This document shows, one piece after another, positions 273 to 56,008 of a stretch of DNA of 64,000 nt. The translations under genes and the position numbers were made by a program. The notes under the pieces were generated by a model, which saw nothing but the letters and a program-made list of their open reading frames with translations, was not told the DNA's origin and did no database searches. This DNA comes from Acidocella sp. (GTDB lineage: Bacteria > Pseudomonadota > Alphaproteobacteria > Acetobacterales > Acetobacteraceae). The stretch covers positions 534,328 through 598,327 of the forward strand of contig OZ240675.1 in assembly GCA_965198835.1 (NCBI GenBank), given 5' to 3'. Position 1 is the stretch's first letter. Each line of letters begins with the position of its first letter.

Positions 273-1022
273 TCAGGCGACTTCCCGAGCGCTTTCCGCG
301 GTTGCCGGCAACGCCGGCTTCTGCGGTGCAAACGTGGCGGAATCCTGCCGATGGTCGATCACCATATAGCCACGCCCCCAATTGGTCTCGATAAAATCGT
401 CGACACCCATTGACTGCAGTTTTTTGCGGATTTTGCAGATGAAAACATCGATTATCTTAGGATTAGGCTCGTCAAGTCCGCCGTAAAGATGGTCAAGGAT
501 CGCCTCCTTGCTCAGGACCGCACCTTTGCGGAGGGCAAGAATTTCGGCAATTTGATATTCTTTCTTGGTCAGCGTAACAGGCTTGCCCTTCGCAAAAATC
601 TTCTTCGCATTCATGTTGATTTCGACAGAGCCGATACAGAGCGAATTGTCCTGAAAGCCGCGGCTGCGGCGGATCAGGTTCTGCATCTTCATAAACACCT
701 CTTCATGCGACAGCGCATTGACGATCAGATCGTCTGCGCCGGCCTGCAATATCCGCAGCCGGGCTGCCTCGGTCATCGATCGCGCGACCGCGACAATAGG
801 TGCTCGCACCTTTGCCAGGCGCAACTTGCGGATCAGCTCCACCTCACCCGGCCGATCTTCAGAAAGCCGCAATAAGATAGTATCATATTCGTAGAACTTG
901 ATGAGATCGAGCACTTCTTCGCCATCATTTGTCTCATCAACGATAGCGAGCCTCGACCGCAAGAAAGGCGTCAGTAAGTCCGTTTTATTGAGAAACGTCT
1001 CAAAAGATAAAATTTTCATCAC
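273..1022 (-). CDS. CtrA/OmpR-family winged-helix regulator with degenerate (pseudo) receiver domain
   Basis: 249-aa ORF. C-terminal half (LTKKEYQIAEILALRKG, KIIDVFICKIRKKL, WGRGYMV) closely resembles the CtrA DNA-binding domain. The N-terminal ~120 aa has receiver length and spacing but lacks the acidic pair, the acceptor Asp (ILLRLSEDRPG), the T/S and the K. Confidence 0.85.
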   Translation of the reverse strand: MMKILSFETFLNKTDLLTPFLRSRLAIVDETNDGEEVLDLIKFYEYDTILLRLSEDRPGEVELIRKLRLAKVRAPIVAVARSMTEAARLRILQAGADDLIVNALSHEEVFMKMQNLIRRSRGFQDNSLCIGSVEINMNAKKIFAKGKPVTLTKKEYQIAEILALRKGAVLSKEAILDHLYGGLDEPNPKIIDVFICKIRKKLQSMGVDDFIETNWGRGYMVIDHRQDSATFAPQKPALPATAESAREVA

Positions 1023-1065
1023 CTTACTCCTTTAGATTGTGCCAATCTACAACCACAAGAAGAAG

Positions 1066-1086
1066 TTGTCAATATTTTTGTCAATA
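1066..1086. promoter_or_regulatory. Direct repeat TTGTCAATA-N3-TTGTCAATA in AT-rich divergent promoter
   Basis: Two identical 9-mers at 1066-1074 and 1078-1086, 12 bp start to start. They sit in the only strongly AT-rich stretch between the divergent genes 273..1022(-) and 1240..2007(+). Confidence 0.3.
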
Positions 1087-2473: not shown

Positions 2474-4057
2474 ATGAAAAAAGGTCTGTCCGCGTGCGCC
2501 GTTTTGAGTCTGCTCGGGTTGTTCATGTGGCACCTGCCAAACCAGCCGCAAGCCGCAGGCATCACCCTGCCAGGTGCCAAGTTCAACTCCTTGTCCTATG
2601 CCCCCTATCAAGCCTGGCAATCGCCGCTCTCGAAATCATATCCAACCGGCAAACAAGTCGCCGCCGACCTCAAGCTCATCGCCGGGCAAGCCAACGGCAT
2701 CCGGACCTATTCCTCGATCGAGGGCAATTACGACATCGGCGCGCTCGCCAAACAAGCTGACCTGAAAGTCTGGCTCGGGATCTGGCTCAGCGCCAACCCT
2801 GCCGATAATAGCAAGGAGATCGCCGCCGGCATTGCCGAGGCCAATGCCCATCCTGATACCATCACGCGCGTGATTGTCGGCAACGAGGTCCTGCTGCGCC
2901 GCGATCTTTCGGTCGATGCCCTCACGGCGGACATCGATTACGTCCGTGCTCGCGTCAAGCAACCGGTGGCCTATGCCGATGTCACCGACTTCTGGAAAAA
3001 ATTCCCGCAGGTCGCCCCCCATGTCGACATCGTTATGATCCATTTTCTGCCCTATTGGGAGGACAAGCCGCTCGACGTCGACGCGGCGATCGCCAATATC
3101 AAATCCACCACCGAAGGATTCAAAACCCTGTTTCCCGGCAAGACAATCTCGATCGGTGAAACCGGCTGGCCCTCGCGCGGCCGCTGGCGCAAAGCCGCCG
3201 CCCCTTCCCGCGTCAATGAAGCGGTTTTTCTCCGCCAATTCGTTACGTTGGCAGATCAGGAAGATGTCGACTACAACCTCATCGAAGCTTTCGATCAGCC
3301 CTGGAAATATGAAGACGAAGGCGTGGCGGGGGCGAACTGGGGCATATGGAACGACCACCGCGTGCAGAAATTTCCGTTGAACGGCGGCGTCGTCGAACAT
3401 CCGGATTGGCCGTGGTATGCCATCCTGGGCGCGCTCTCCGGCACATTGCTCTTTGCCAGCACCGGCTTTCGCAATATCCGGCTTGCCGTTCCATCCTTCA
3501 TGCTCGGCAACGGCTTTGCGATTGCCTGCGCCGGCACCCTGCCGATGCTCTATGATAACTGGCTTATCCTTGACGCCATCGTTAACCTGCCCTTGCAGGC
3601 GATTTTCGCTTTCCGCATCATCGCCCGCGCCGACGCGATTTTCGCCGGCAGAACGCTACCGGCCCACACGCCGGCGGCCACCACTTTCGCGGCGCTTCGG
3701 CGGGGCCGGCTCATGCTCAACTACGATTCGCTCTGGACCGTTTTCCTGACCGGCGCAGCGATCTTTCAAGTGATGCTGCTGTTTGACGGCCGCTATCGCG
3801 ACGCCCCGATGCCGGCCTTCATCATCCCCGTCATCGCCGCCGTTTTCCGCTTCTGGACCAAAGACAAACCATTGCCGCTGGCCTGGGAAGATCTGCTCGC
3901 CGCCAATGTTCTTGCCCCTGCCGCCCTTGCCAGCGCCATCGTGGAAGGCGCGAACAACCTGGATTTCATCACCTGGAGCGTCGCAGCCCTCATCCTGGCC
4001 GCTCCCATCCTCATCATTCAAGATCGCAGAACCCCTGGAAGAAGGCGGCTGCGTTAG
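2474..4057 (+). CDS. GH17-domain membrane protein (NdvC-like beta-(1-6) glucan synthase architecture)
   Basis: 527 aa. Signal-like N-terminus, glycoside hydrolase 17-like motifs (VIVGNEVLLRRD, ISIGETGWPS), then a C-terminal half made of hydrophobic helices. Confidence 0.7.
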   Translation: MKKGLSACAVLSLLGLFMWHLPNQPQAAGITLPGAKFNSLSYAPYQAWQSPLSKSYPTGKQVAADLKLIAGQANGIRTYSSIEGNYDIGALAKQADLKVWLGIWLSANPADNSKEIAAGIAEANAHPDTITRVIVGNEVLLRRDLSVDALTADIDYVRARVKQPVAYADVTDFWKKFPQVAPHVDIVMIHFLPYWEDKPLDVDAAIANIKSTTEGFKTLFPGKTISIGETGWPSRGRWRKAAAPSRVNEAVFLRQFVTLADQEDVDYNLIEAFDQPWKYEDEGVAGANWGIWNDHRVQKFPLNGGVVEHPDWPWYAILGALSGTLLFASTGFRNIRLAVPSFMLGNGFAIACAGTLPMLYDNWLILDAIVNLPLQAIFAFRIIARADAIFAGRTLPAHTPAATTFAALRRGRLMLNYDSLWTVFLTGAAIFQVMLLFDGRYRDAPMPAFIIPVIAAVFRFWTKDKPLPLAWEDLLAANVLAPAALASAIVEGANNLDFITWSVAALILAAPILIIQDRRTPGRRRLR

Positions 4058-4142: not shown

Positions 4143-4817
4143 CTACTCGGTCTCGAATACCGGCGCCAAAGCCTCGGCTGCTGGTGCCTGGCTTAGCATC
4201 TCGATCCGGCCGGTTATTTGGCCGCCATCTTCCACCTGCAGCCTGCGGCAGCGCGCGGTGCCCAGCACCCGGCCGGTTGCCCGGATGATCAGCGCGTTGC
4301 GGGCGGTCAGGGTGCCATCGATCGTTCCGGCCACCTCCGCTTCATCGACTTCAACTTCGCCCTTGAACACACCGCCATGGGCGATGGACAACTCCGCCAG
4401 ACCATTGATCATCGCAGCTTCCACGGTGCCTTCGACAACCAGACGCTCGGCATCCTGTACTGTGCCCTGCACACTGATACCGCGGCCGACGACTAGCGTC
4501 CTCCGCTCTCCGCCGTCACGCGCCGGCGCTTCACTTGAAGTTTGAATCCCGGCCACCGGCGGGCGCAGCACAGCGCTCGGAGAAGGCGGAATAGCGGGCG
4601 AGAACGGTGAACGAGCCATTAAAGTCTCCTTGTTGAAAGCTTGCGGCATTTGCGCGAATTCCGGCGGCGTCGGCCGGAACGGTGGTACATCAAGCCCGTT
4701 ATCCTCTGGCACTTCGCGATCAAGCGTGCCGGTCTGCGGGCTTGAGAAGTCGAGTCTTGCCTCACGCGGCTTCAGCTCAACCGATTTTTCATCATCAGGC
4801 TTGCGGCGATTGAACAC
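4143..4817 (-). CDS. Bactofilin family cytoskeletal protein with long Pro-rich N-terminal extension
   Basis: The C-terminal ~110 aa show the repetitive beta-helix pattern (VVGRGISVQGTV..LVVEGTVEA..GGVFKGEVEVDEAEVAGTIDGTL..ITGRIEM). The N-terminal ~110 aa are low complexity and P-rich. Confidence 0.75.
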   Translation of the reverse strand: MFNRRKPDDEKSVELKPREARLDFSSPQTGTLDREVPEDNGLDVPPFRPTPPEFAQMPQAFNKETLMARSPFSPAIPPSPSAVLRPPVAGIQTSSEAPARDGGERRTLVVGRGISVQGTVQDAERLVVEGTVEAAMINGLAELSIAHGGVFKGEVEVDEAEVAGTIDGTLTARNALIIRATGRVLGTARCRRLQVEDGGQITGRIEMLSQAPAAEALAPVFETE

Positions 4818-5938: not shown

Positions 5939-6249
5939 TGCGGCTGACCGAAATTGCACCGTCGGATGCCTCCCCGACTTGTCGCCATCCTGCGATTCGC
6001 CATCTCACTATAGGGCGGCTATTTGGCGTCGACTTGCTCCGCCGCATTGATGACACCGTGCTGCGGGTTGGCGTCATCATCATTGGCAGCCCATTGACCA
6101 TCGCGCTTTTCATGGAGTCCTGAGCGCTTTCAAGGCAAAGCAAGGGCTGCTTCTTCTGCAGAAAAAGCACCGGGCCGCCGATGCGGCGAAAAGACTTTCG
6201 TTAGTCTGCAGCTGAGGCCAGTCTTCTCCAGCAACCCAAGGCCGGTCAT

Positions 6250-6540
6250 TCAATCCGTCTCGTTAAATCCCGCCTCGATCAATGCAGCGATGGCATCCAG
6301 CGCTTCCTTGGCATCGAAACCCTCGGCACTCAACACAACAAAACTGCCGGGCGCCGCGCCCAGCATCATCAGGCCCATAATGGACCGTGCGGAGACGGAC
6401 TGGCCGTCTTTTGCAACATCGACGGAGGCGCTGAATTTCTCGGCGAGGGTCACCAGCTTCGCGGCTGCGCGCGCATGCAAGCCTCGCCGGTTAACGATCT
6501 CGACCTCGCGTGTGATGACGGCACCACCATCATCACTCAT
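6250..6540 (-). CDS. ptsH: HPr/NPr phosphocarrier protein
   Basis: 96 aa with VEIVNRRGLHARAAAKLV (His-15 region) and SARSIMGLMMLGA (Ser-46 region). Confidence 0.9.
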   Translation of the reverse strand: MSDDGGAVITREVEIVNRRGLHARAAAKLVTLAEKFSASVDVAKDGQSVSARSIMGLMMLGAAPGSFVVLSAEGFDAKEALDAIAALIEAGFNETD

Positions 6541-6550
6541 CGCTTGTTAT

Positions 6551-6988
6551 TCATCCGGCCGCGCAGCGCGGTCCTCCACCCGGCAAGGCCGCAGTCTGCT
6601 GCACTTCGTGCCCTGAACAAATATATTTGCGGCCGGCGGCTTCTGCGCACCGCACCGCCTCCGCCAGCCCATAGCTACCGCGTATCTTCGCGAGCTTTAC
6701 GAGCATCGGCAGGTTGACTCCGCCGATCACTTCCACATCCTTCTCCCGCAGCATCGACATCGCGAGGTTGCTTGGCGTTCCACCGAACATATCCGTCAGC
6801 AGAATAACGCCATCGCCGCTATCCACCTCCGCCATGCGCGCTGCAATTTCGGTGCGTTGGCCTTCAAACTCCGCATCCGATTCGATGCATACCGTGGCGA
6901 GCGCCTTTTGCTTGCCGACCACATGTTCCATTGCATCCCGCAATGCGAGGGCAAGTGCCCCATGGGTAACCAGAACCATCCCGATCAT
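6551..6988 (-). CDS. PTS EIIA component, mannose family
   Basis: 145 aa with MIGMVLVTHG (active-site His) and ILLTDMFGGTPSN. Lies between rapZ and npr, as in alphaproteobacterial regulatory PTS loci. Confidence 0.85.
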   Translation of the reverse strand: MIGMVLVTHGALALALRDAMEHVVGKQKALATVCIESDAEFEGQRTEIAARMAEVDSGDGVILLTDMFGGTPSNLAMSMLREKDVEVIGGVNLPMLVKLAKIRGSYGLAEAVRCAEAAGRKYICSGHEVQQTAALPGGGPRCAAG

Positions 6989-8466: not shown

Positions 8467-9552
8467 TCAGCTTTCCAGGCGCTCACGACGCAGCGTATCC
8501 AGGGGAAGCAGTTTTCCGCTTCTTTCGAAATGCCAAAACGTCCACCCATTGCATGAAGGCGCATTCTGCACAGCGGCGCCAACTTTATGAATGGAACCGC
8601 GGTGCGCGCCGCAGATCAGGTTGCCATCGGCAGTGACTTCAGCGCCAACGCGGCGCAGCCGGTCGGTCAGCCTGGTCCCGGCCTTGATGGTGCCATTTTC
8701 GACAAAGCTGCCGAACGCGATGCGGGGCGCTTGGCGCCCCAGAGGCGGACCATGGACCGTATTTTTCGGTGCCGGGTCTTCCACCTGCAGCCGCCCCCAG
8801 GCGGCTTCGACATAAGCCGGGTGACGCTCGATGCCGATAAAATGCCGGTGCAGCCGCTTCGCGACTACCGCCGTCGTCCCTGTTCCCAAAAAGGGATCGA
8901 GAATGATGTCGCCCGGCGCTGTCGAGGCGAGTACGACCCTGTGCAGCAGCGCCTCCGGCTTTTGCGTCGGATGCAATTTCAGCCCGTGCGCGTTGCGTAG
9001 ACGCTCCGGCCCCGTACATAAAGCAATCGACCAGTCGCTGCGCATCTGCAGATCATCATTCAGCGACTTCATGCTCTGGTAGTTGAACTTGTAGCGCGAC
9101 TCCCGGCCTTTGGCCGCCCAGATCATCGTTTCATGCGCGTTCGTAAAACGGCGCCCCCGAAAATTAGGCATCGGGTTGGTCTTGCGCCATATGACGTCGT
9201 TCAGGACCCAGAACCCAAGATCCTGTAAAATAGCGCCGATGCGGAAGATATTATGGTAGCTGCCGATGACCCACAGCGTGCCGTCCTTGCGCAGCACCCG
9301 GCGGCATTCGCTCAGCCACTCCAGCGTGAATGCGTCATAGGCGGCGAAGTCGGTAAACTTGTCCCAGTCGTCATCAACCCCATCAACCAGGCTGTCGTCA
9401 GGCCGCCGCAGCTCGCCGCGCAGCTGCAGATTATATGGCGGATCGGCAAAGACGCAGTGGACCGAGGCATCCGGCAACATGCGCAGCATCTGGCCAGCGT
9501 CGCCCAGTAAAATCTGATCCAGCGGCAATTCGCGCGCAGCTTCCACGGTCAA
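8467..9552 (-). CDS. ccrM: Cell-cycle-regulated N6-adenine DNA methyltransferase CcrM (GANTC)
   Basis: 361 aa. Beta-class order with DPPYNL first and the SAM motif (ILDPFLGTGTT) later, plus the CcrM-typical C-terminal extension. Adjacent to rnhB. Confidence 0.9.
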   Translation of the reverse strand: MTVEAARELPLDQILLGDAGQMLRMLPDASVHCVFADPPYNLQLRGELRRPDDSLVDGVDDDWDKFTDFAAYDAFTLEWLSECRRVLRKDGTLWVIGSYHNIFRIGAILQDLGFWVLNDVIWRKTNPMPNFRGRRFTNAHETMIWAAKGRESRYKFNYQSMKSLNDDLQMRSDWSIALCTGPERLRNAHGLKLHPTQKPEALLHRVVLASTAPGDIILDPFLGTGTTAVVAKRLHRHFIGIERHPAYVEAAWGRLQVEDPAPKNTVHGPPLGRQAPRIAFGSFVENGTIKAGTRLTDRLRRVGAEVTADGNLICGAHRGSIHKVGAAVQNAPSCNGWTFWHFERSGKLLPLDTLRRERLES

Positions 9553-43779: not shown

Positions 43780-44940
43780 ATGGCGCTACCCGACGCATTC
43801 ATCACGGGCATAGGCCAATCGCAGATCGGCGCCAGACTGACACGCCATCCCCTGTTGCTAACGCTGGATGCAATTCGCGAGGCGCTGGACGAATCGGGAC
43901 TGACCATCGCCGATATCGACGGCATCTCCACCTATCCCGGCAAAGCCGCCGGGTATCTTGGGTTCTCGCCGGTCGGCTCTGAAGACTTGATCGACGCGCT
44001 GCGGATGACAATCCACTGGTATGCCGGCGGGTTCGAAACCTCCTCGCAGCTTGGCGCCGTGGTTGCCGCGGCCAACGCCGTGCGCGCCGGCCAGGCCCGG
44101 CATGTGATCTGCTTTCGCACTGTCTATGAGGCCGCGGCGATGGCGCGGCCCGAAGCCTATCCCGCACCCAGAGGCGATCGCGCCGAGGGCGGCTCGCAAT
44201 GGACCATGCCGTTCAACGCATATTCGGCGGCGACCTGGGTGGCGCAATACGCGATGCGGCACGTCAAGCGCTATGGCTTGAAGCGCGAGCAGCTGGCGCA
44301 GATTGCCCTGACGGATCGTAAACACGCTTTGCTCAACCCGCGCGCCATGGTGCGCGAGGAGCTGACCATGGACCAATACATGAATGCGCGGATGATCGCC
44401 GATCCGCTCTGCCTCTACGATTGCGACCGTTTCAGCGATGCCTCGACCGTGCTGATCGTCTCCGCCGCGGAGGCGATCGGCGAGGTTAAATGCACCCCTA
44501 TCCGCATCGCCGCCGGCGCCTATGCGACCGAGCGCCATAGCTGGGATCAGTCTGAGTGGATGGCGGCCTATTCCACCGGCGCGCAGCTTTGGAAATATAC
44601 CGACTACAAGCCCAAGGACGTCGATACCGTCCAGCTTTATGACGGGTTCGCCTTCCTTTCTTTGACCTGGCTGGAAGGCCTTGGTTTTTGCGGTGTGGGT
44701 GAGGCCGGCCGTTTCATCGAAGGCGGTCAACGCCTGGCCTTGGATGGCGAGCTGCCCTTCAACACCTTCGGCGGCCAGATCGGCGCCGGGCGCCTGCACG
44801 GCTTTGGGTTTGCGCATGAGGCGGTGACGCAGCTGCGCGGGCTTGGCGGCGACCGCCAGATACCCGGCGATCCGCGCGTCGCGGTCGCCGCTTCCGGCGG
44901 CGGACCGCTGGCGACGGCATTGCTGTTGGCTCGAGACTAG
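43780..44940 (+). CDS. SCP2/lipid-transfer-type thiolase-like protein (DUF35 partner)
   Basis: 386 aa. Thiolase-fold pattern with LYDCDRFSDAS, VQLYDGFAF and FNTFGGQIGAGRLHGF. Lies 1 nt after the DUF35 stop. Confidence 0.8.
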   Translation: MALPDAFITGIGQSQIGARLTRHPLLLTLDAIREALDESGLTIADIDGISTYPGKAAGYLGFSPVGSEDLIDALRMTIHWYAGGFETSSQLGAVVAAANAVRAGQARHVICFRTVYEAAAMARPEAYPAPRGDRAEGGSQWTMPFNAYSAATWVAQYAMRHVKRYGLKREQLAQIALTDRKHALLNPRAMVREELTMDQYMNARMIADPLCLYDCDRFSDASTVLIVSAAEAIGEVKCTPIRIAAGAYATERHSWDQSEWMAAYSTGAQLWKYTDYKPKDVDTVQLYDGFAFLSLTWLEGLGFCGVGEAGRFIEGGQRLALDGELPFNTFGGQIGAGRLHGFGFAHEAVTQLRGLGGDRQIPGDPRVAVAASGGGPLATALLLARD

Positions 44941-44943
44941 AAC

Positions 44944-45654
44944 ATGCAGCCCGGCTATCGCCGCCGTATCCTTATCGAACCCGGCCCGGCCCGGGTGACC
45001 GCCGAGCTGGAGGATGACTATCACCGGATGGTTGTCACGCTGACACATGAGGATGGCATCGTCACCGAAGTTTCCAGCGAAATGAAACGCTCGCCCTGGA
45101 CGCTTTGCCCGGGCGCCATGGCGCAGCTTGCGGCTACCTTTACCGGCGTGCCGCTTGCCGGTTTTCCTAAGCGTGGCGAGAAAAGTCAGAACTGCACGCA
45201 TCTGCACGATCTGGCGTTGTTCGCTGCGGCACACGCGAACGAAACAGCTTCGGTGGCGTATGATATCATTGTAACCGATCCGGTGAACGGCGACCGGCAG
45301 GCGCAGCTGAAGCGAAATGGTGAGCTGTTACTGAACTGGCAGCTGCAGGGTGATCTTTTTCTCGAGCCCACCGCCCTGCAGGGCATCCGCCTGACGGAGA
45401 TGAACCCCTGGATAGGCAGCCTGGATAAAGCCGGCGCCGAAATGGCGCGCATTTTGCGCTGGGCCTCCTTTATCGCCTCCGGCCGCGCACGGGAGATGCC
45501 TGCGGGAATGCCGGCAACCGCCTTCCCCGGCAGCGCCTGCTATAATTTTCAGCCTGAAAGGGCAGTCTACTCCACCCGCCGTCCGGCCGCGGATATCGAT
45601 TTCAGCCGCCCTTACGCTGAGCCGATGGCGGACAGATCGGCGGCCTTCGCCTGA
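44944..45654 (+). CDS. DUF2889 domain protein
   Basis: ELEDDYHRMVVTLTHEDGIVTEV....RSPWTLCPGA matches the DUF2889 signature. Confidence 0.7.
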   Translation: MQPGYRRRILIEPGPARVTAELEDDYHRMVVTLTHEDGIVTEVSSEMKRSPWTLCPGAMAQLAATFTGVPLAGFPKRGEKSQNCTHLHDLALFAAAHANETASVAYDIIVTDPVNGDRQAQLKRNGELLLNWQLQGDLFLEPTALQGIRLTEMNPWIGSLDKAGAEMARILRWASFIASGRAREMPAGMPATAFPGSACYNFQPERAVYSTRRPAADIDFSRPYAEPMADRSAAFA

Positions 45655-52430: not shown

Positions 52431-52802
52431 TTAAAGCGCCGCGAGTTTGGAAATTAGCGTTGAAAAGTTGAAGGGTTTTTCGCAGCGCGGGTGGCGCTGG
52501 TATTTCTCGTCCAGCACGTTGCCGCCGTAACCCGTGGCGAAGACGAAGCCGATCCGGCGGGCGACAAGGGCGTCGGCGATAGGATAGGATCGCTTGCCGT
52601 GCAGGTTCACGTCCAGCAGTGCGGCATCGAAGGGTTGCGCGCCGCCTTCTATGAAGGCGATGGCCTCGTCCACCGAGCCGATCGGCCCCAGCACGCTCGC
52701 CCCGGCATCCTCCAGCAGATCGACAAGGACCATCGCCACCAGGTAGTCATCCTCGACAACCAGAATGCGCCGCCCCGACAGATTTGTGGTGCGCAAGCTC
52801 AT
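52431..52802 (-). CDS. Single-domain response regulator
   Basis: RILVVEDDYLV, ALLDVNLHG, FATGYG. ATGA overlap with the kinase stop. Confidence 0.85.
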   Translation of the reverse strand: MSLRTTNLSGRRILVVEDDYLVAMVLVDLLEDAGASVLGPIGSVDEAIAFIEGGAQPFDAALLDVNLHGKRSYPIADALVARRIGFVFATGYGGNVLDEKYQRHPRCEKPFNFSTLISKLAAL

Positions 52803-55800
52803 AGTGCTTGCACTGTCTCCTCGCGCTCACGCAATGCTACAAGCTCGCCCGCCGTCTTAGGCAGGGGAAGCTCGATACGGCAGGAGACGCCCTCGTTGCC
52901 GAAGCGCAGACTGGTCTTGGCGCGCAGCGTAAATTCCAGCGCCCGCTCGATCAGGTCGCGACCAAAACCGCGGCGTACGGGTTTGCGCAAATCGTCCACT
53001 CCCTCCTCCACCCAGTCCAGCACAAGGACCCAGTCATCCTCCGCATTGTGCTGGACGCGCCAAGAAATCGTCAGCCGGCCATTATCCTTTTTAAGGGCAC
53101 CATATTTCACCGCATTGGTCGCAAGTTCATGCAAGGCGAGCGCGAATGGCTGGACGAGATCGGAGCCCAACGGGACCGGCGGACCCGAGATCGAGATTTT
53201 GCCATCGGTTGCTCCATGCGCCTGTAGTTCCAGCCGAACCACTTCCTGCAGGTCGATGTGGCCCTCCATCGTGCCGCCGACAAGGTTCTGGACACGGCTC
53301 AAGGCCGCAAGACGTTCGAAGAAACCCTCCAGCGTACCGCCTTTCCCGAGAGTTTGTTGCGCAATCGACTGCACTACCGCGAGCAGGTTGCGGGTGCGGT
53401 GCTGCAGCTCCGCGATTAGAACCTGCTGCCGCTCTTCCGATCGCGCCAGAGTGGTAACGTCGACGAACGTCACGACCACACCTTCGATACCTTGATCCAG
53501 CCTGCGGTAGGGCACGAATCGCACGAGGTAATTGCTCGTGCGATCACTGGCGGCCAAGCGCCGCTCCAGCGAGAAGCCGCCCTCAAAGACTTTGCCGATA
53601 TCGTCGGCAAAGCCGGTAAGATCAAGCTTGCTTGAAAGATCCGTGATCGGCCGGCCGCGATCGGTCGGCAGGATGCTGAATACTTTGACGACCGCCGGCG
53701 TGAAGCTGCGAATGACGAGCTTTGCATCCAGGAAGACGGTTGCGACATCGGTGCTTTCAAACAGATTTTGCAGGTCGCTGTTAACGCGGTCCAACGCCTC
53801 AATCTTGGTCGAAAGCTCGATGTTGACGGTGTGCAGCTCTTCATTGACCGATTGCAGCTCTTCCTTGGAAGCCTCCAGCTCCTCGTTGGTGGACTGCATC
53901 TCCTCGTTGACGGAGACGAGTTCCTCGTTGGAGGATTTCAATTCTTCGAGCGCGGTTTCGTATTCTTCGATGGTTGATTGCAGGCGATCGCGGGTTTCGC
54001 GCAGCTCGCGCTCGGTATCGGCGGCGACGCCGTTCGTGCTGGCTTCTGCGCGGCTCAGCGCCTCTTCGCGGCTGAGTATCGGCCCCTGATCGGCGAACAG
54101 CACCAGGAAGAGCGGCTCGCCAGAAGCGCGGTCGCCCATCGGCTCGATCGTCAGGCTGACCAGCTGCACGCGGCCGTCATCGCCTTCCACCGGAATCGCA
54201 TCGCGGGTGGCGGAAAGGCCGGATTCCACCGCCTCGCGAAACAGCGTCCGCAGATCGAGGCGCAGGCTCTTGCGTGCCATGGTGAGAAACTGCCGGGTCG
54301 GCGCGCCGGGCGGCGGCTCAAGATATTTGCCGGTGCGGGTGGAGTAGTAGACGACGTCGCCATCTTGGTTGATGACGACATGCGGCGGCGAGAAGCGTTC
54401 CAGCACCTGAACATCGACCGCCTGGCGCAAGGCGCTTCCGGCCAGCGGCCCGCGGCGCTGCTGCATTTCCGGCAGCTGGCCGGCGCGCATGCCATGCAGC
54501 ATCAACGGCATACGAAACGCGCCTGACGTATCGGAACGCTTGCGGAAGATCTTATGCCGCTTATCGAGCGGCGTGAACAAATCGTCGAAATGCGAGATGT
54601 TCTCGGCAAGCCCGAGGAAAAGATAACCATCGGGACGCAGCGCGTAGTGAAAGGTGGGGATGACCTGGTTCTGCACATCCGCGCCGAAATAGATCAGCAG
54701 GTTGCGGCAGGAGATCAGGTCGATGCGCGAGAAGGGCGGGTCGCGGATGACGCTGTGCGGCGAGAAGATGCAGAGCTCGCGTACATCTTTTGAGACCACG
54801 TAGCTGGCGCCGTCGGCGATGAAGAAGCGCTGGCGGCGCGCCGGCGAAACCGAATCGAGCAGCGGCCCCGGATAGCGCGCCGCGCGGGCGATGCCGAGCG
54901 AGCGCTCATCGATGTCGGTTGCGAAAATCTGCACGCGGGGAAGGATTTTCAGCCCGTCCATATGCTCGCGCATCAGGATGGCGATGGAGAAAACCTCCTC
55001 GCCGGTGGAACAGCCCGGCACCCAGATGCGCAACGTATCCTCGGCGCCGAGGCCTTCGAACAGCTTCGTGATGACCTCGTTCGCCAGCGTCTCGAACGCA
55101 TCCGCATCGCGGAAGAAATTGGTGACGTTGATCAGCAGGTCGCGAAACAGCGCGCCCACCTCCTGCGGCTCTTGCCGGAGCCGTTCCACATAGGCTTCGA
55201 CCGTGGTGAGTTGGGCGACCTGCATCCGGCGCTGCACCCGGCGCATGAAGGTCTTGGCCTTATAGCCGCTGAAATCATGGCCGATCTGATTGCGCAGGAT
55301 GCTGTAGATTTCCGGCAAAACCAGTTCAAAGCCTGGCTCCTGCGGTTGCTTTTCGGTGCCGTCGTCCATTACATCGAGCAGCGCGACATTACGAGCGAAT
55401 TCGGCGAGCTTAGCGCCCATCTCGTCGGCCGGGATGGCAAAATCCACGAGTCCCGAGGAGATCGCGGCATTCGGCATGTCCGAATGCTGCGGCCCGTACC
55501 CGTCGCTCACCTGCGCCAGCGTTATGCCGCCACGTTCCTTGATCGCCTTGATGCCAAGCGCCCCGTCCGTGTCGCTGCCGGAGAGGATGATGCCGCCTGC
55601 CAGTTCTCCGACATCGACCGCAAGAGCGCTCAGGAAGAAGTCGATCGGCTTGCGTTCCCGCCGGCCGAAATTCTTCTGCAGCTGAAGTTGGCGATTTTCA
55701 ATGCCGATGATCACATCGGACGGCATCACGTAGACCTGGTTAGCCGCCACCTCCATGCCGTCTTTGGCAACATGTACCGGCAGGAGAGTGTAACGCGAAA

Positions 55801-56008
55801 CGATGTCGTGCAGCAGGCTCTCCCGATCGGGGCTCAGATGCGTAACAATGACGAGCGCGATGCCAGGTTCGGATGGCAGGCCGTGCAGCAGGCCCTCCAA
55901 CGCCTCGATTCCGCCGGCTGAAGCGCCGACACCGATTATGGGAAAGTCCGACTCGCGGCTCACGGCCGCGCATTTCCCGAGCGGGGCGGCCAGCCGGTTC
56001 GGGGACAA
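52799..56008 (-). CDS. CheB methylesterase - CheR methyltransferase - PAS - coiled coil - PAS - HWE/HisKA_2 histidine kinase fusion
   Basis: 1069 aa. IIGVGASAGGIEAL (CheB), FFRD...IWVPGCSTGEEVFS (CheR), a heptad-rich EEL(K/Q)S.NEEL segment, and LIAELQHRTRNLL (HWE H-box). TTG start, so the N-terminus is uncertain. Confidence 0.85.
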   Translation of the reverse strand: MSPNRLAAPLGKCAAVSRESDFPIIGVGASAGGIEALEGLLHGLPSEPGIALVIVTHLSPDRESLLHDIVSRYTLLPVHVAKDGMEVAANQVYVMPSDVIIGIENRQLQLQKNFGRRERKPIDFFLSALAVDVGELAGGIILSGSDTDGALGIKAIKERGGITLAQVSDGYGPQHSDMPNAAISSGLVDFAIPADEMGAKLAEFARNVALLDVMDDGTEKQPQEPGFELVLPEIYSILRNQIGHDFSGYKAKTFMRRVQRRMQVAQLTTVEAYVERLRQEPQEVGALFRDLLINVTNFFRDADAFETLANEVITKLFEGLGAEDTLRIWVPGCSTGEEVFSIAILMREHMDGLKILPRVQIFATDIDERSLGIARAARYPGPLLDSVSPARRQRFFIADGASYVVSKDVRELCIFSPHSVIRDPPFSRIDLISCRNLLIYFGADVQNQVIPTFHYALRPDGYLFLGLAENISHFDDLFTPLDKRHKIFRKRSDTSGAFRMPLMLHGMRAGQLPEMQQRRGPLAGSALRQAVDVQVLERFSPPHVVINQDGDVVYYSTRTGKYLEPPPGAPTRQFLTMARKSLRLDLRTLFREAVESGLSATRDAIPVEGDDGRVQLVSLTIEPMGDRASGEPLFLVLFADQGPILSREEALSRAEASTNGVAADTERELRETRDRLQSTIEEYETALEELKSSNEELVSVNEEMQSTNEELEASKEELQSVNEELHTVNIELSTKIEALDRVNSDLQNLFESTDVATVFLDAKLVIRSFTPAVVKVFSILPTDRGRPITDLSSKLDLTGFADDIGKVFEGGFSLERRLAASDRTSNYLVRFVPYRRLDQGIEGVVVTFVDVTTLARSEERQQVLIAELQHRTRNLLAVVQSIAQQTLGKGGTLEGFFERLAALSRVQNLVGGTMEGHIDLQEVVRLELQAHGATDGKISISGPPVPLGSDLVQPFALALHELATNAVKYGALKKDNGRLTISWRVQHNAEDDWVLVLDWVEEGVDDLRKPVRRGFGRDLIERALEFTLRAKTSLRFGNEGVSCRIELPLPKTAGELVALREREETVQAL

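Follow-up and report, generated by a model that had tools for sequence, protein, structure and literature searches.

The first kilobase or so of a 64-kb stretch of Acidocella sp. DNA (assembly GCA_965198835.1, contig OZ240675.1, forward-strand positions 534,328 to 598,327; the window, in what follows, is this whole stretch) carries a gene for a CtrA-like regulator whose N-terminal half is a pseudo-receiver, with an Arg where CtrA has its phospho-acceptor Asp. CtrA, the cell-cycle and motility response regulator of Alphaproteobacteria, is a textbook regulator under the control of both phosphorylation and proteolysis. An earlier, sequence-only reading of the window had proposed that this protein is a CtrA paralogue that works independently of phosphorylation.

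The gene is a single open reading frame (ORF), listed at 273..1022 on the minus strand with its stop codon at 273-275. Translation most likely begins with the ATG at 1017-1019 and not with the listed GTG at 1020-1022, because the Shine-Dalgarno sequence AAGGAG lies 7 nt before that ATG (1027..1032, minus strand, also recovered in the upstream-region alignment) and the homologues begin there, with MKIL. The gene would then span 273..1019 and encode 248 amino acids beginning MKILSFET; residue numbers below refer to this product and coincide with those of CtrA. An alignment of upstream regions also picks out a putative sigma-70-type promoter, TTGACA-N17-TAGATT (1044..1072, minus strand), 53 nt upstream of the ATG; six loci, representing three sub-lineages and including L004 and the Acidiphilium locus L085, have the same motif at -53/-54. 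The aligned promoters contain neither a CtrA box nor a conserved GANTC site. In this window only, the -35 element is doubled (1067-1090, TTGACAAAAATATTGACAAC, with TTGACA occurring twice at a 12-nt distance); relatives do not share the upstream copy. An exact-sequence look-up returned no record of the protein.

DNA-binding and receiver domains

The C-terminal half leaves little doubt about the family. A winged-helix DNA-binding domain spans amino acids 125-223 (351..647, minus strand) and matches Trans_reg_C at 8e-19 in the profile comparison that the sequence-only reading had suggested. In a MAFFT alignment, its recognition helix KIIDVFICKIRKKL and wing ETNWGRGY stand opposite KIIDVFICKLRKKL and ETVWGRGY of CtrA, and the domain is 54-57% identical to its canonical CtrA counterparts. 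The best NCBIfam model for the whole protein is the CtrA equivalog NF045991, which matches over its full length (2-223 of 224) at 210.4 bits, below its cutoff of 350; PhoP comes second at 95 bits, a lead of more than 115 bits for CtrA. Homologues are annotated as CtrA (K13584) by JGI. The earlier description of this half as very CtrA-like is borne out, and the sequence places the protein in the CtrA clade of the OmpR/PhoB type.

The N-terminal half, amino acids 1-120 (660..1019, minus strand), is receiver-like by a Response_reg (PF00072) match, by alignments, and by AlphaFold2 and Foldseek, with a Pfam score of 29.7 bits that falls just under the gathering score of 30.2. We placed its functional sites by two alignments that agree, one made by phmmer to DrrD (1kgs) and the other by MAFFT with 17 canonical and variant CtrAs, the canonical ones coming from Caulobacterales, Rhizobiales-like, Rhodobacterales, Rhodospirillales, and Acetobacteraceae genomes; the MAFFT alignment has no gap across residues 1-124. 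The beta1 acidic residues E-D-D of CtrA become E7-T8-F9, the acceptor Asp51 becomes R51 (codon CGG at 867..869, minus strand), the beta4 Ser/Thr becomes A79, the switch Tyr becomes L98, and the beta5 Lys-Pro becomes N101-A102. In all, four of the five conserved receiver residues and the switch Tyr are replaced, and E7 is the sole acidic residue to survive. Both alignments confirm the Asp-to-Arg change that had been noticed by eye. The broader claim, that all four kinds of site had been lost, holds for the acceptor, the beta4 Ser/Thr, the Lys-Pro pair, and the second acidic residue; the first acidic residue is retained.

Over 150 Acidocella and Acidiphilium homologues keep these replacements. 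In the family alignment, the acceptor column holds Arg in 119 of 121 members and His in 2, and the column of the beta5 Lys holds Asp, Asn, or Glu (78, 31, and 11 members, respectively). The Asp of the SEDRPG motif was considered as a substitute acceptor in an intact pocket, the situation in which the sequence-only reading would have been mistaken. The alignments reject it: beta3 ends 4 residues before this Asp, which falls in a column that is variable (D48/E33/N11/S11) compared with the near-fixed R51. On the evidence of R51, T8, A79, and N101-A102 in these alignments, we agree with that reading that the N-terminal domain is incapable of His-Asp phosphotransfer at the canonical site.

The fold itself appears to be preserved. 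AlphaFold2, working from a 134-sequence alignment, gives a model with a mean predicted local distance difference test score (pLDDT) of 81.8, in which the receiver has five strand-helix units, from beta1 (residues 2-7) to alpha5 (105-119), with block pLDDT values of 76-93. A winged helix follows, and then a disordered tail (residues 225-248). Foldseek matches the model to OmpR/PhoB regulators; the best whole-chain superpositions are with DNA-bound PmrA and CosR, at template modeling (TM) scores of 0.72-0.84, and the Brucella CtrA receiver, 4qpj_C, is matched at a TM score of 0.84. Among 106 full-length homologues, mean pairwise identity is 75% in the receiver, 91% in the DNA-binding domain, and 27% in the tail. 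Within the receiver, the alpha4-beta5-alpha5 stretch, RLRvLQaGADDLIV.ALSHEE.FmK.QNL.RRsRGF, is nearly invariant in the family. Measured against orthologues, the proportion of nonsynonymous differences (pN) in the receiver is 0.06-0.13, compared with about 0.7 for synonymous differences (pS) at sites that are saturated, and pN is far below pS in the receiver and the DNA-binding domain alike. The ORF is unbroken in more than 150 sequence clusters. Because purifying selection coincides with a predicted receiver fold, we regard the receiver half, on these sequence-based grounds, as a functional pseudo-receiver under strong purifying selection and not as a product of decay.

The C-terminal tail (amino acids 224-248; 276..350, minus strand) is predicted to be disordered, with pLDDT below 50 at residues 225-248, and is poorly conserved among homologues. 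It ends in ..EVA, and the final two residues are VA, IA, or MA in 102 of 120 homologues although identity in the tail is 27%. The last three residues of CtrA are a known stability determinant (PMC12186491). The conserved hydrophobic-Ala end may possibly be a C-terminal degron like that of CtrA, a candidate role confined to Acidocella and a weak step in the argument.

Distribution and the CtrA complement of the hosts

The sequence-only reading had also suggested a survey of the Asp-to-Arg variant. The 120 best database matches are at least 67% identical to the window protein, and those that carry a name are from Acidocella. Searching again with a 67%-identical member brings in numerous proteins named as Acidiphilium (among them those of Acidiphilium sp. 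C61, A. iwatense, and "MULTISPECIES Acidiphilium"), all with Arg at the acceptor; farther relatives, 46-52% identical, have His or Gln there. Within the matches listed, this family, here called the R-type, is confined to Acidocella and Acidiphilium among named sequences. Our literature searches found no account of a CtrA without a phosphorylation site in Acidocella, Acidiphilium, or other Acetobacteraceae, and searches by the locus tags GOX1693, Acry_1830, and their neighbors found nothing, in keeping with the earlier remark that no characterized member of this kind was known. What the published comparative studies noted is the missing relay, not the altered receiver.

That missing relay provides much of the context. 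In Rhodospirillales of the Acetobacteraceae type, CcrM is reported to be present and the CckA-ChpT-CtrA relay to be missing "to different degrees" (PMC2877005), and some Acetobacteraceae have no ctrA at all (PMC2877005; PMC8116508). In a Proteinortho table, closed genomes of Acetobacter, Asaia, Gluconobacter, Komagataeibacter, and Acidiphilium have no CckA, ChpT, or DivL (PMC8116508 supplement). The same supplement gives one CtrA each, of 753 nt, for A. cryptum JF-5 (Acry_1830) and A. multivorum (ACMV_20710), and 753 nt is also the length of the R-type gene found in an Acidiphilium assembly.

We scanned genomes, one per species, for loci encoding KIIDVFIC, reading the result among the 600 matches listed. 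Three Acidocella-like genomes, including the complete 2.9-Mb chromosome OY968826.1, show an R-type locus only, and no Mb-scale contig is common to the match lists of the R-type and of the CtrAs with Asp or Glu at the acceptor (D/E-type). Any canonical copy would have ranked among the matches listed, so the scan is supportive, if not conclusive. In addition, the 120 nearest relatives of one D/E-type CtrA from Acetobacteraceae include no protein with an Acidocella or Acidiphilium name. Within the 64-kb window, no CckA, ChpT, or DivL is encoded, and a phmmer scan of all window ORFs finds no second OmpR-type or receiver gene. The check for a canonical ctrA elsewhere in the genome, which the sequence-only reading had called for, is answered in part: neither the Acidiphilium tables in the literature nor the matches listed contain a second copy. 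Altogether, we consider it likely that the R-type is the sole CtrA-family gene of the Acidocella/Acidiphilium lineage, and it is plausible that it substitutes for CtrA.

Mode of action and alternatives

How would such a protein work? We favor, with some reservation, the view that it is the only CtrA-family factor of Acidocella and Acidiphilium and a phosphorylation-independent, probably dimeric DNA binder whose activity is set by its abundance. The R-type would have arisen once the CckA-ChpT relay was lost in Acetobacteraceae. The alpha4-beta5-alpha5 face, whose near-invariance in the sequence alignment hints only indirectly at dimerization, may serve as a permanent dimerization or partner-binding module, as it does in other phosphorylation-independent OmpR/PhoB regulators; known pseudo-receiver proteins of the OmpR family are constitutive dimers, mostly through this face (PMC12632262). 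The R-type protein may bind direct-repeat sites that resemble CtrA boxes. Its output would be fixed by the amount of protein, that is, by transcription from the conserved sigma-70 promoter and, in Acidocella, possibly by ClpXP-type turnover through the C-terminal hydrophobic-Ala end, the weak step mentioned above. A basic residue at the acceptor position goes together with Asp, Asn, or Glu in place of the beta5 Lys, which suggests, speculatively, that Arg51 and the residue at the Lys position make a charge-swapped contact mimicking the phospho-Asp/Lys contact of the active state.

Several observations weigh against this reading. The host's own lack of canonical CtrA, CckA, and ChpT is drawn from the Acidiphilium literature and from the scan of the matches listed, and Acry_1830 is tied to the R-type by gene length and genus only. 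None of the R-type loci compared has fliI beside the gene, while a FliI-type ATPase adjoins ctrA in at least 12 D/E-type loci; the sole positional link is a 2-hydroxyacid dehydrogenase gene, adjacent in Acidocella and 7 kb off in two Glu-type metagenome-assembled genomes (MAGs). The clade with Arg, His, or Gln at the acceptor forms one long branch in neighbor-joining trees, whether these are built from the whole protein or from either domain (DNA-binding or receiver) by itself, and the attachment of that branch shifts with the domain. No TTAA-N7-TTAA site occurs in the gene's own promoter or in the 64-kb window, where 0.23 perfect boxes are expected by chance; one-mismatch sites number 5, against 4.3 expected. 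Finally, the hydrophobic-Ala end is missing from Acidiphilium members, which end in ..RVGT or ..IAG.

The long branch and the position away from fliI also bear on the reading from which this work started, in which a phosphorylation-blind paralogue stands beside a canonical CtrA and competes for its boxes or forms heterodimers with it. The window protein is only 40-46% identical to all other CtrAs, those of Acetobacteraceae included, its gene lies away from the fliI-adjacent position of ctrA, and the degenerate CtrA-like genes found in metagenomes and viral contigs indicate that duplication or transfer does occur. However, according to the ortholog tables, closed Acidiphilium genomes have one CtrA and lack CckA, ChpT, and DivL, and the scan finds no second locus in OY968826.1 or the other two R-type genomes among the matches listed. 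The absence of Acidocella and Acidiphilium names among the closest relatives of D/E-type CtrA, and of a second OmpR-type gene in the window, points the same way. The tables, with one CtrA, and the scan, with one locus among the matches listed, speak against a paralogue competing with CtrA, and we regard that reading as unlikely. As to its origin, the gene may be an orthologue that has moved and evolved quickly, or else a paralogue of long standing that survived when the original ctrA was lost.

Nor need the R-type protein be constitutive. The pseudo-receiver could be a sensor, switched by a small ligand or by a partner such as an anti-activator of the MirA or SciP kind. There is precedent in Rem, a pseudo-receiver regulator that MirA inhibits (PMC12632262). 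Conservation is strong in the parts of the receiver that face the surface, and E54, R56, S104, H105, and E106 are invariants specific to the family. Yet the conserved stretch is the usual dimer face, the receiver has no conserved Cys or recognizable ligand motif, and no gene neighbor is kept across Acidocella, the L004 lineage, and Acidiphilium, all of which makes a switched sensor quite unlikely. Phosphorylation of a non-canonical residue (D46, E54/D55, or a Ser/Thr) by an unrecognized kinase is very improbable. Some atypical regulators are under the control of Ser/Thr kinases, and D46 and E54 are conserved in the family, but D46 belongs to the "YD" conserved at the start of beta3 in all CtrAs and is not an acceptor there, D55 is variable in the family, and the Mg2+ pocket, Lys, and Ser/Thr needed for Asp phosphorylation chemistry are all gone. 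Least probable of all is that the gene is a decaying, functionless relic of ctrA. The Response_reg score under the Pfam threshold and the outright loss of ctrA in some Acetobacteraceae would fit a relic, but the conservation pattern already refutes it: the ORF is intact in more than 150 clusters, pN is much lower than pS in the receiver and the DNA-binding domain, family members share 91% identity in the latter, and the promoter and Shine-Dalgarno sequence are conserved.

Surroundings, related receivers, and significance

The window is an ordinary chromosomal region of 60.8% G+C with purH, pheS, tilS, ftsH, rsmB, rnhB, and ccrM. The regulator gene is an orphan, with no kinase gene adjacent; its neighbors in the window encode an AIM24 protein, a CoA-binding protein, a GH17 protein, a bactofilin, and a PfkB protein. 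The GH17-like, glucan-related gene (2474-4057, plus strand) and the bactofilin gene (4143-4817, minus strand) lie within 4 kb of the regulator; the nearest relatives (L001-L003) keep this synteny, but the remaining Acidocella and Acidiphilium loci do not. A single kinase gene was seen in the window, 52 kb from the regulator; it encodes a 1,069-amino-acid fusion of CheB methylesterase, CheR methyltransferase, PAS, and HWE histidine kinase domains (52799-56008, minus strand). A 458-amino-acid ORF (43858-45234, minus strand) has a coding-like G+C content at third codon positions (0.66) and no Pfam match at E <= 1e-5. The ccrM gene, identified by domain matches as a CcrM-type methylase (N6_N4_Mtase plus RAMA; 8467-9552), lies 7.5 kb from the regulator, as the sequence-only reading had pointed out. 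The distance is real; the proximity carries no meaning, because the spacing is not conserved even in relatives at 89% identity, and we reject a functional link on that ground.

Changes at the CtrA acceptor are not restricted to the R-type. Other Acetobacteraceae form a graded series, in which Falsiroseomonas, Acidisphaera, and several MAGs have a fully canonical receiver. Acetobacter musti, Asaia sp., Lichenicola, and three MAGs have Glu at position 51, and one MAG has Gly; in Komagataeibacter intermedius (L042), the Asp is retained and the acidic pocket and Lys are gone. The 120 closest relatives of one Glu-type protein include 40 with Glu and 3 with Gly at the acceptor. These Glu forms correspond to CtrA(D51E), the phosphomimetic allele classically used in the laboratory. 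Of the 150 best 50%-identity representatives, 140 can be aligned; the acceptor Asp is absent from 73 of them, a count skewed towards divergent singletons, and only 30 have all five residues. Many representatives with a KIIDVF[IV]CK helix have degenerate receivers.

In Acetobacteraceae and one Rhodospirillales MAG, the canonical or Asp-to-Glu ctrA stands divergently beside a gene for a FliI-type ATPase of the flagellar type III secretion system (ATP-synt_ab plus T3SS_ATPase_C), at loci L008-L010, L013, L015, L018, L023, L029, L030, L047, L053, L061, and L064 (about 8.4-9.9 kb in each). Such an arrangement agrees with an ancestral connection of CtrA to motility. Full-length CtrA-like genes also occur on IMG/VR viral contigs (L087-L096, at about 6001-6660), with Asn or Glu at the acceptor in L087, L088, L091, and L096; none is R-type, which gives no support to a phage origin of the window gene. 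Eight other viral contigs (L100-L107, with matches at about 6001-6156; six of 38-41 kb, the others of 11 and 28 kb) end within the last ~50 codons of a canonical ctrA, which could reflect a prophage attachment site at the 3' end of the gene or an artifact of prophage-boundary calling.

How closely does the R-type resemble known systems? It shares with the CtrA of Caulobacter, Brucella, and Rhodobacter (NF045991, K13584) its two-domain architecture, its length, an ungapped alignment, its best family match, a near-identical recognition helix and wing, a receiver that superposes on that of Brucella CtrA, and a disordered tail ending in a small hydrophobic pair. In contrast, it lacks the acceptor Asp, the second acidic residue, the Ser/Thr, the Lys-Pro, and the switch Tyr, scores 210 against 350 bits, has a receiver only 25-31% identical to that of canonical CtrA, and is not encoded beside fliI; its promoter lacks CtrA boxes and GANTC, and the CckA-ChpT relay is reported absent from the lineage. 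CtrA(D51E) and the natural Glu forms (Acetobacter, Asaia, Lichenicola, and MAGs) resemble it in that a change at residue 51 uncouples the protein from phosphotransfer. However, those variants retain the acidic pocket, the Ser, the Lys, and the fliI-adjacent locus, whereas the window protein has Arg51 and no pocket.

Other likenesses lie outside the CtrA clade. HP1043/HsrA of H. pylori, ChxR of Chlamydia, and GlnR of actinomycetes are likewise orphans with a receiver-like fold and an incomplete catalytic set, and atypical OmpR/PhoB regulators (2hqr and 8hih) are among the Foldseek matches. Regulators of this type are constitutive dimers that bind direct repeats and whose activity follows their expression level (PMC12632262). 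They differ in belonging to unrelated OmpR-family lineages, about 20-24% identical and none derived from CtrA, and dimerization of the window protein is proposed by analogy. Rem and FtcR of Rhizobiales are alphaproteobacterial OmpR-type pseudo-receiver regulators tied to motility, Rem being under an anti-activator and not phosphorylation, but they form a different subfamily and coexist with a canonical CtrA. To our knowledge, FtcR does not have the KIIDVFICK recognition helix. In short, as far as sequence can tell, the window protein is an atypical OmpR/PhoB regulator in its working and a member of the CtrA clade by descent. In acceptor chemistry, curated score, and positional orthology it falls short of what defines CtrA, and the label "cell cycle response regulator CtrA," with the phosphorelay control it implies, is not appropriate for it.

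It is tempting to extend this to the family as a whole. Acetobacteraceae CtrA may have been freed from two-component control repeatedly after loss of the relay, either by the Asp51-to-Glu change or, in Acidocella and Acidiphilium, by remodeling of the whole site with a charge-swapped lock in an active, dimeric state, leaving proteolysis and transcription as the only controls. We offer this tentatively, as possible rather than probable. If it is true, these bacteria hold a natural experiment in rewiring an essential phosphorelay output, and the series from canonical receivers through Asp-to-Glu and Asp-to-Gly to Asp-to-Arg/His/Gln is natural material for studying how receivers become constitutive.

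For Acidocella and Acidiphilium themselves, a lineage-wide, selected CtrA devoid of phosphorylation chemistry would demonstrate that a regulator can shed its signaling input and still retain its DNA-binding output, the more so in a family from which the cognate relay is reported missing. It would account for the puzzle of "CtrA without CckA/ChpT" in comparative studies of Acetobacteraceae, and it urges caution in transferring the CtrA annotation together with the regulation that this name implies. These questions are relevant to alphaproteobacterial cell-cycle control and to the evolution of receiver domains, and they make the R-type protein a candidate for the control of genes for motility, division, or the envelope in acidophiles and in acetic acid bacteria.

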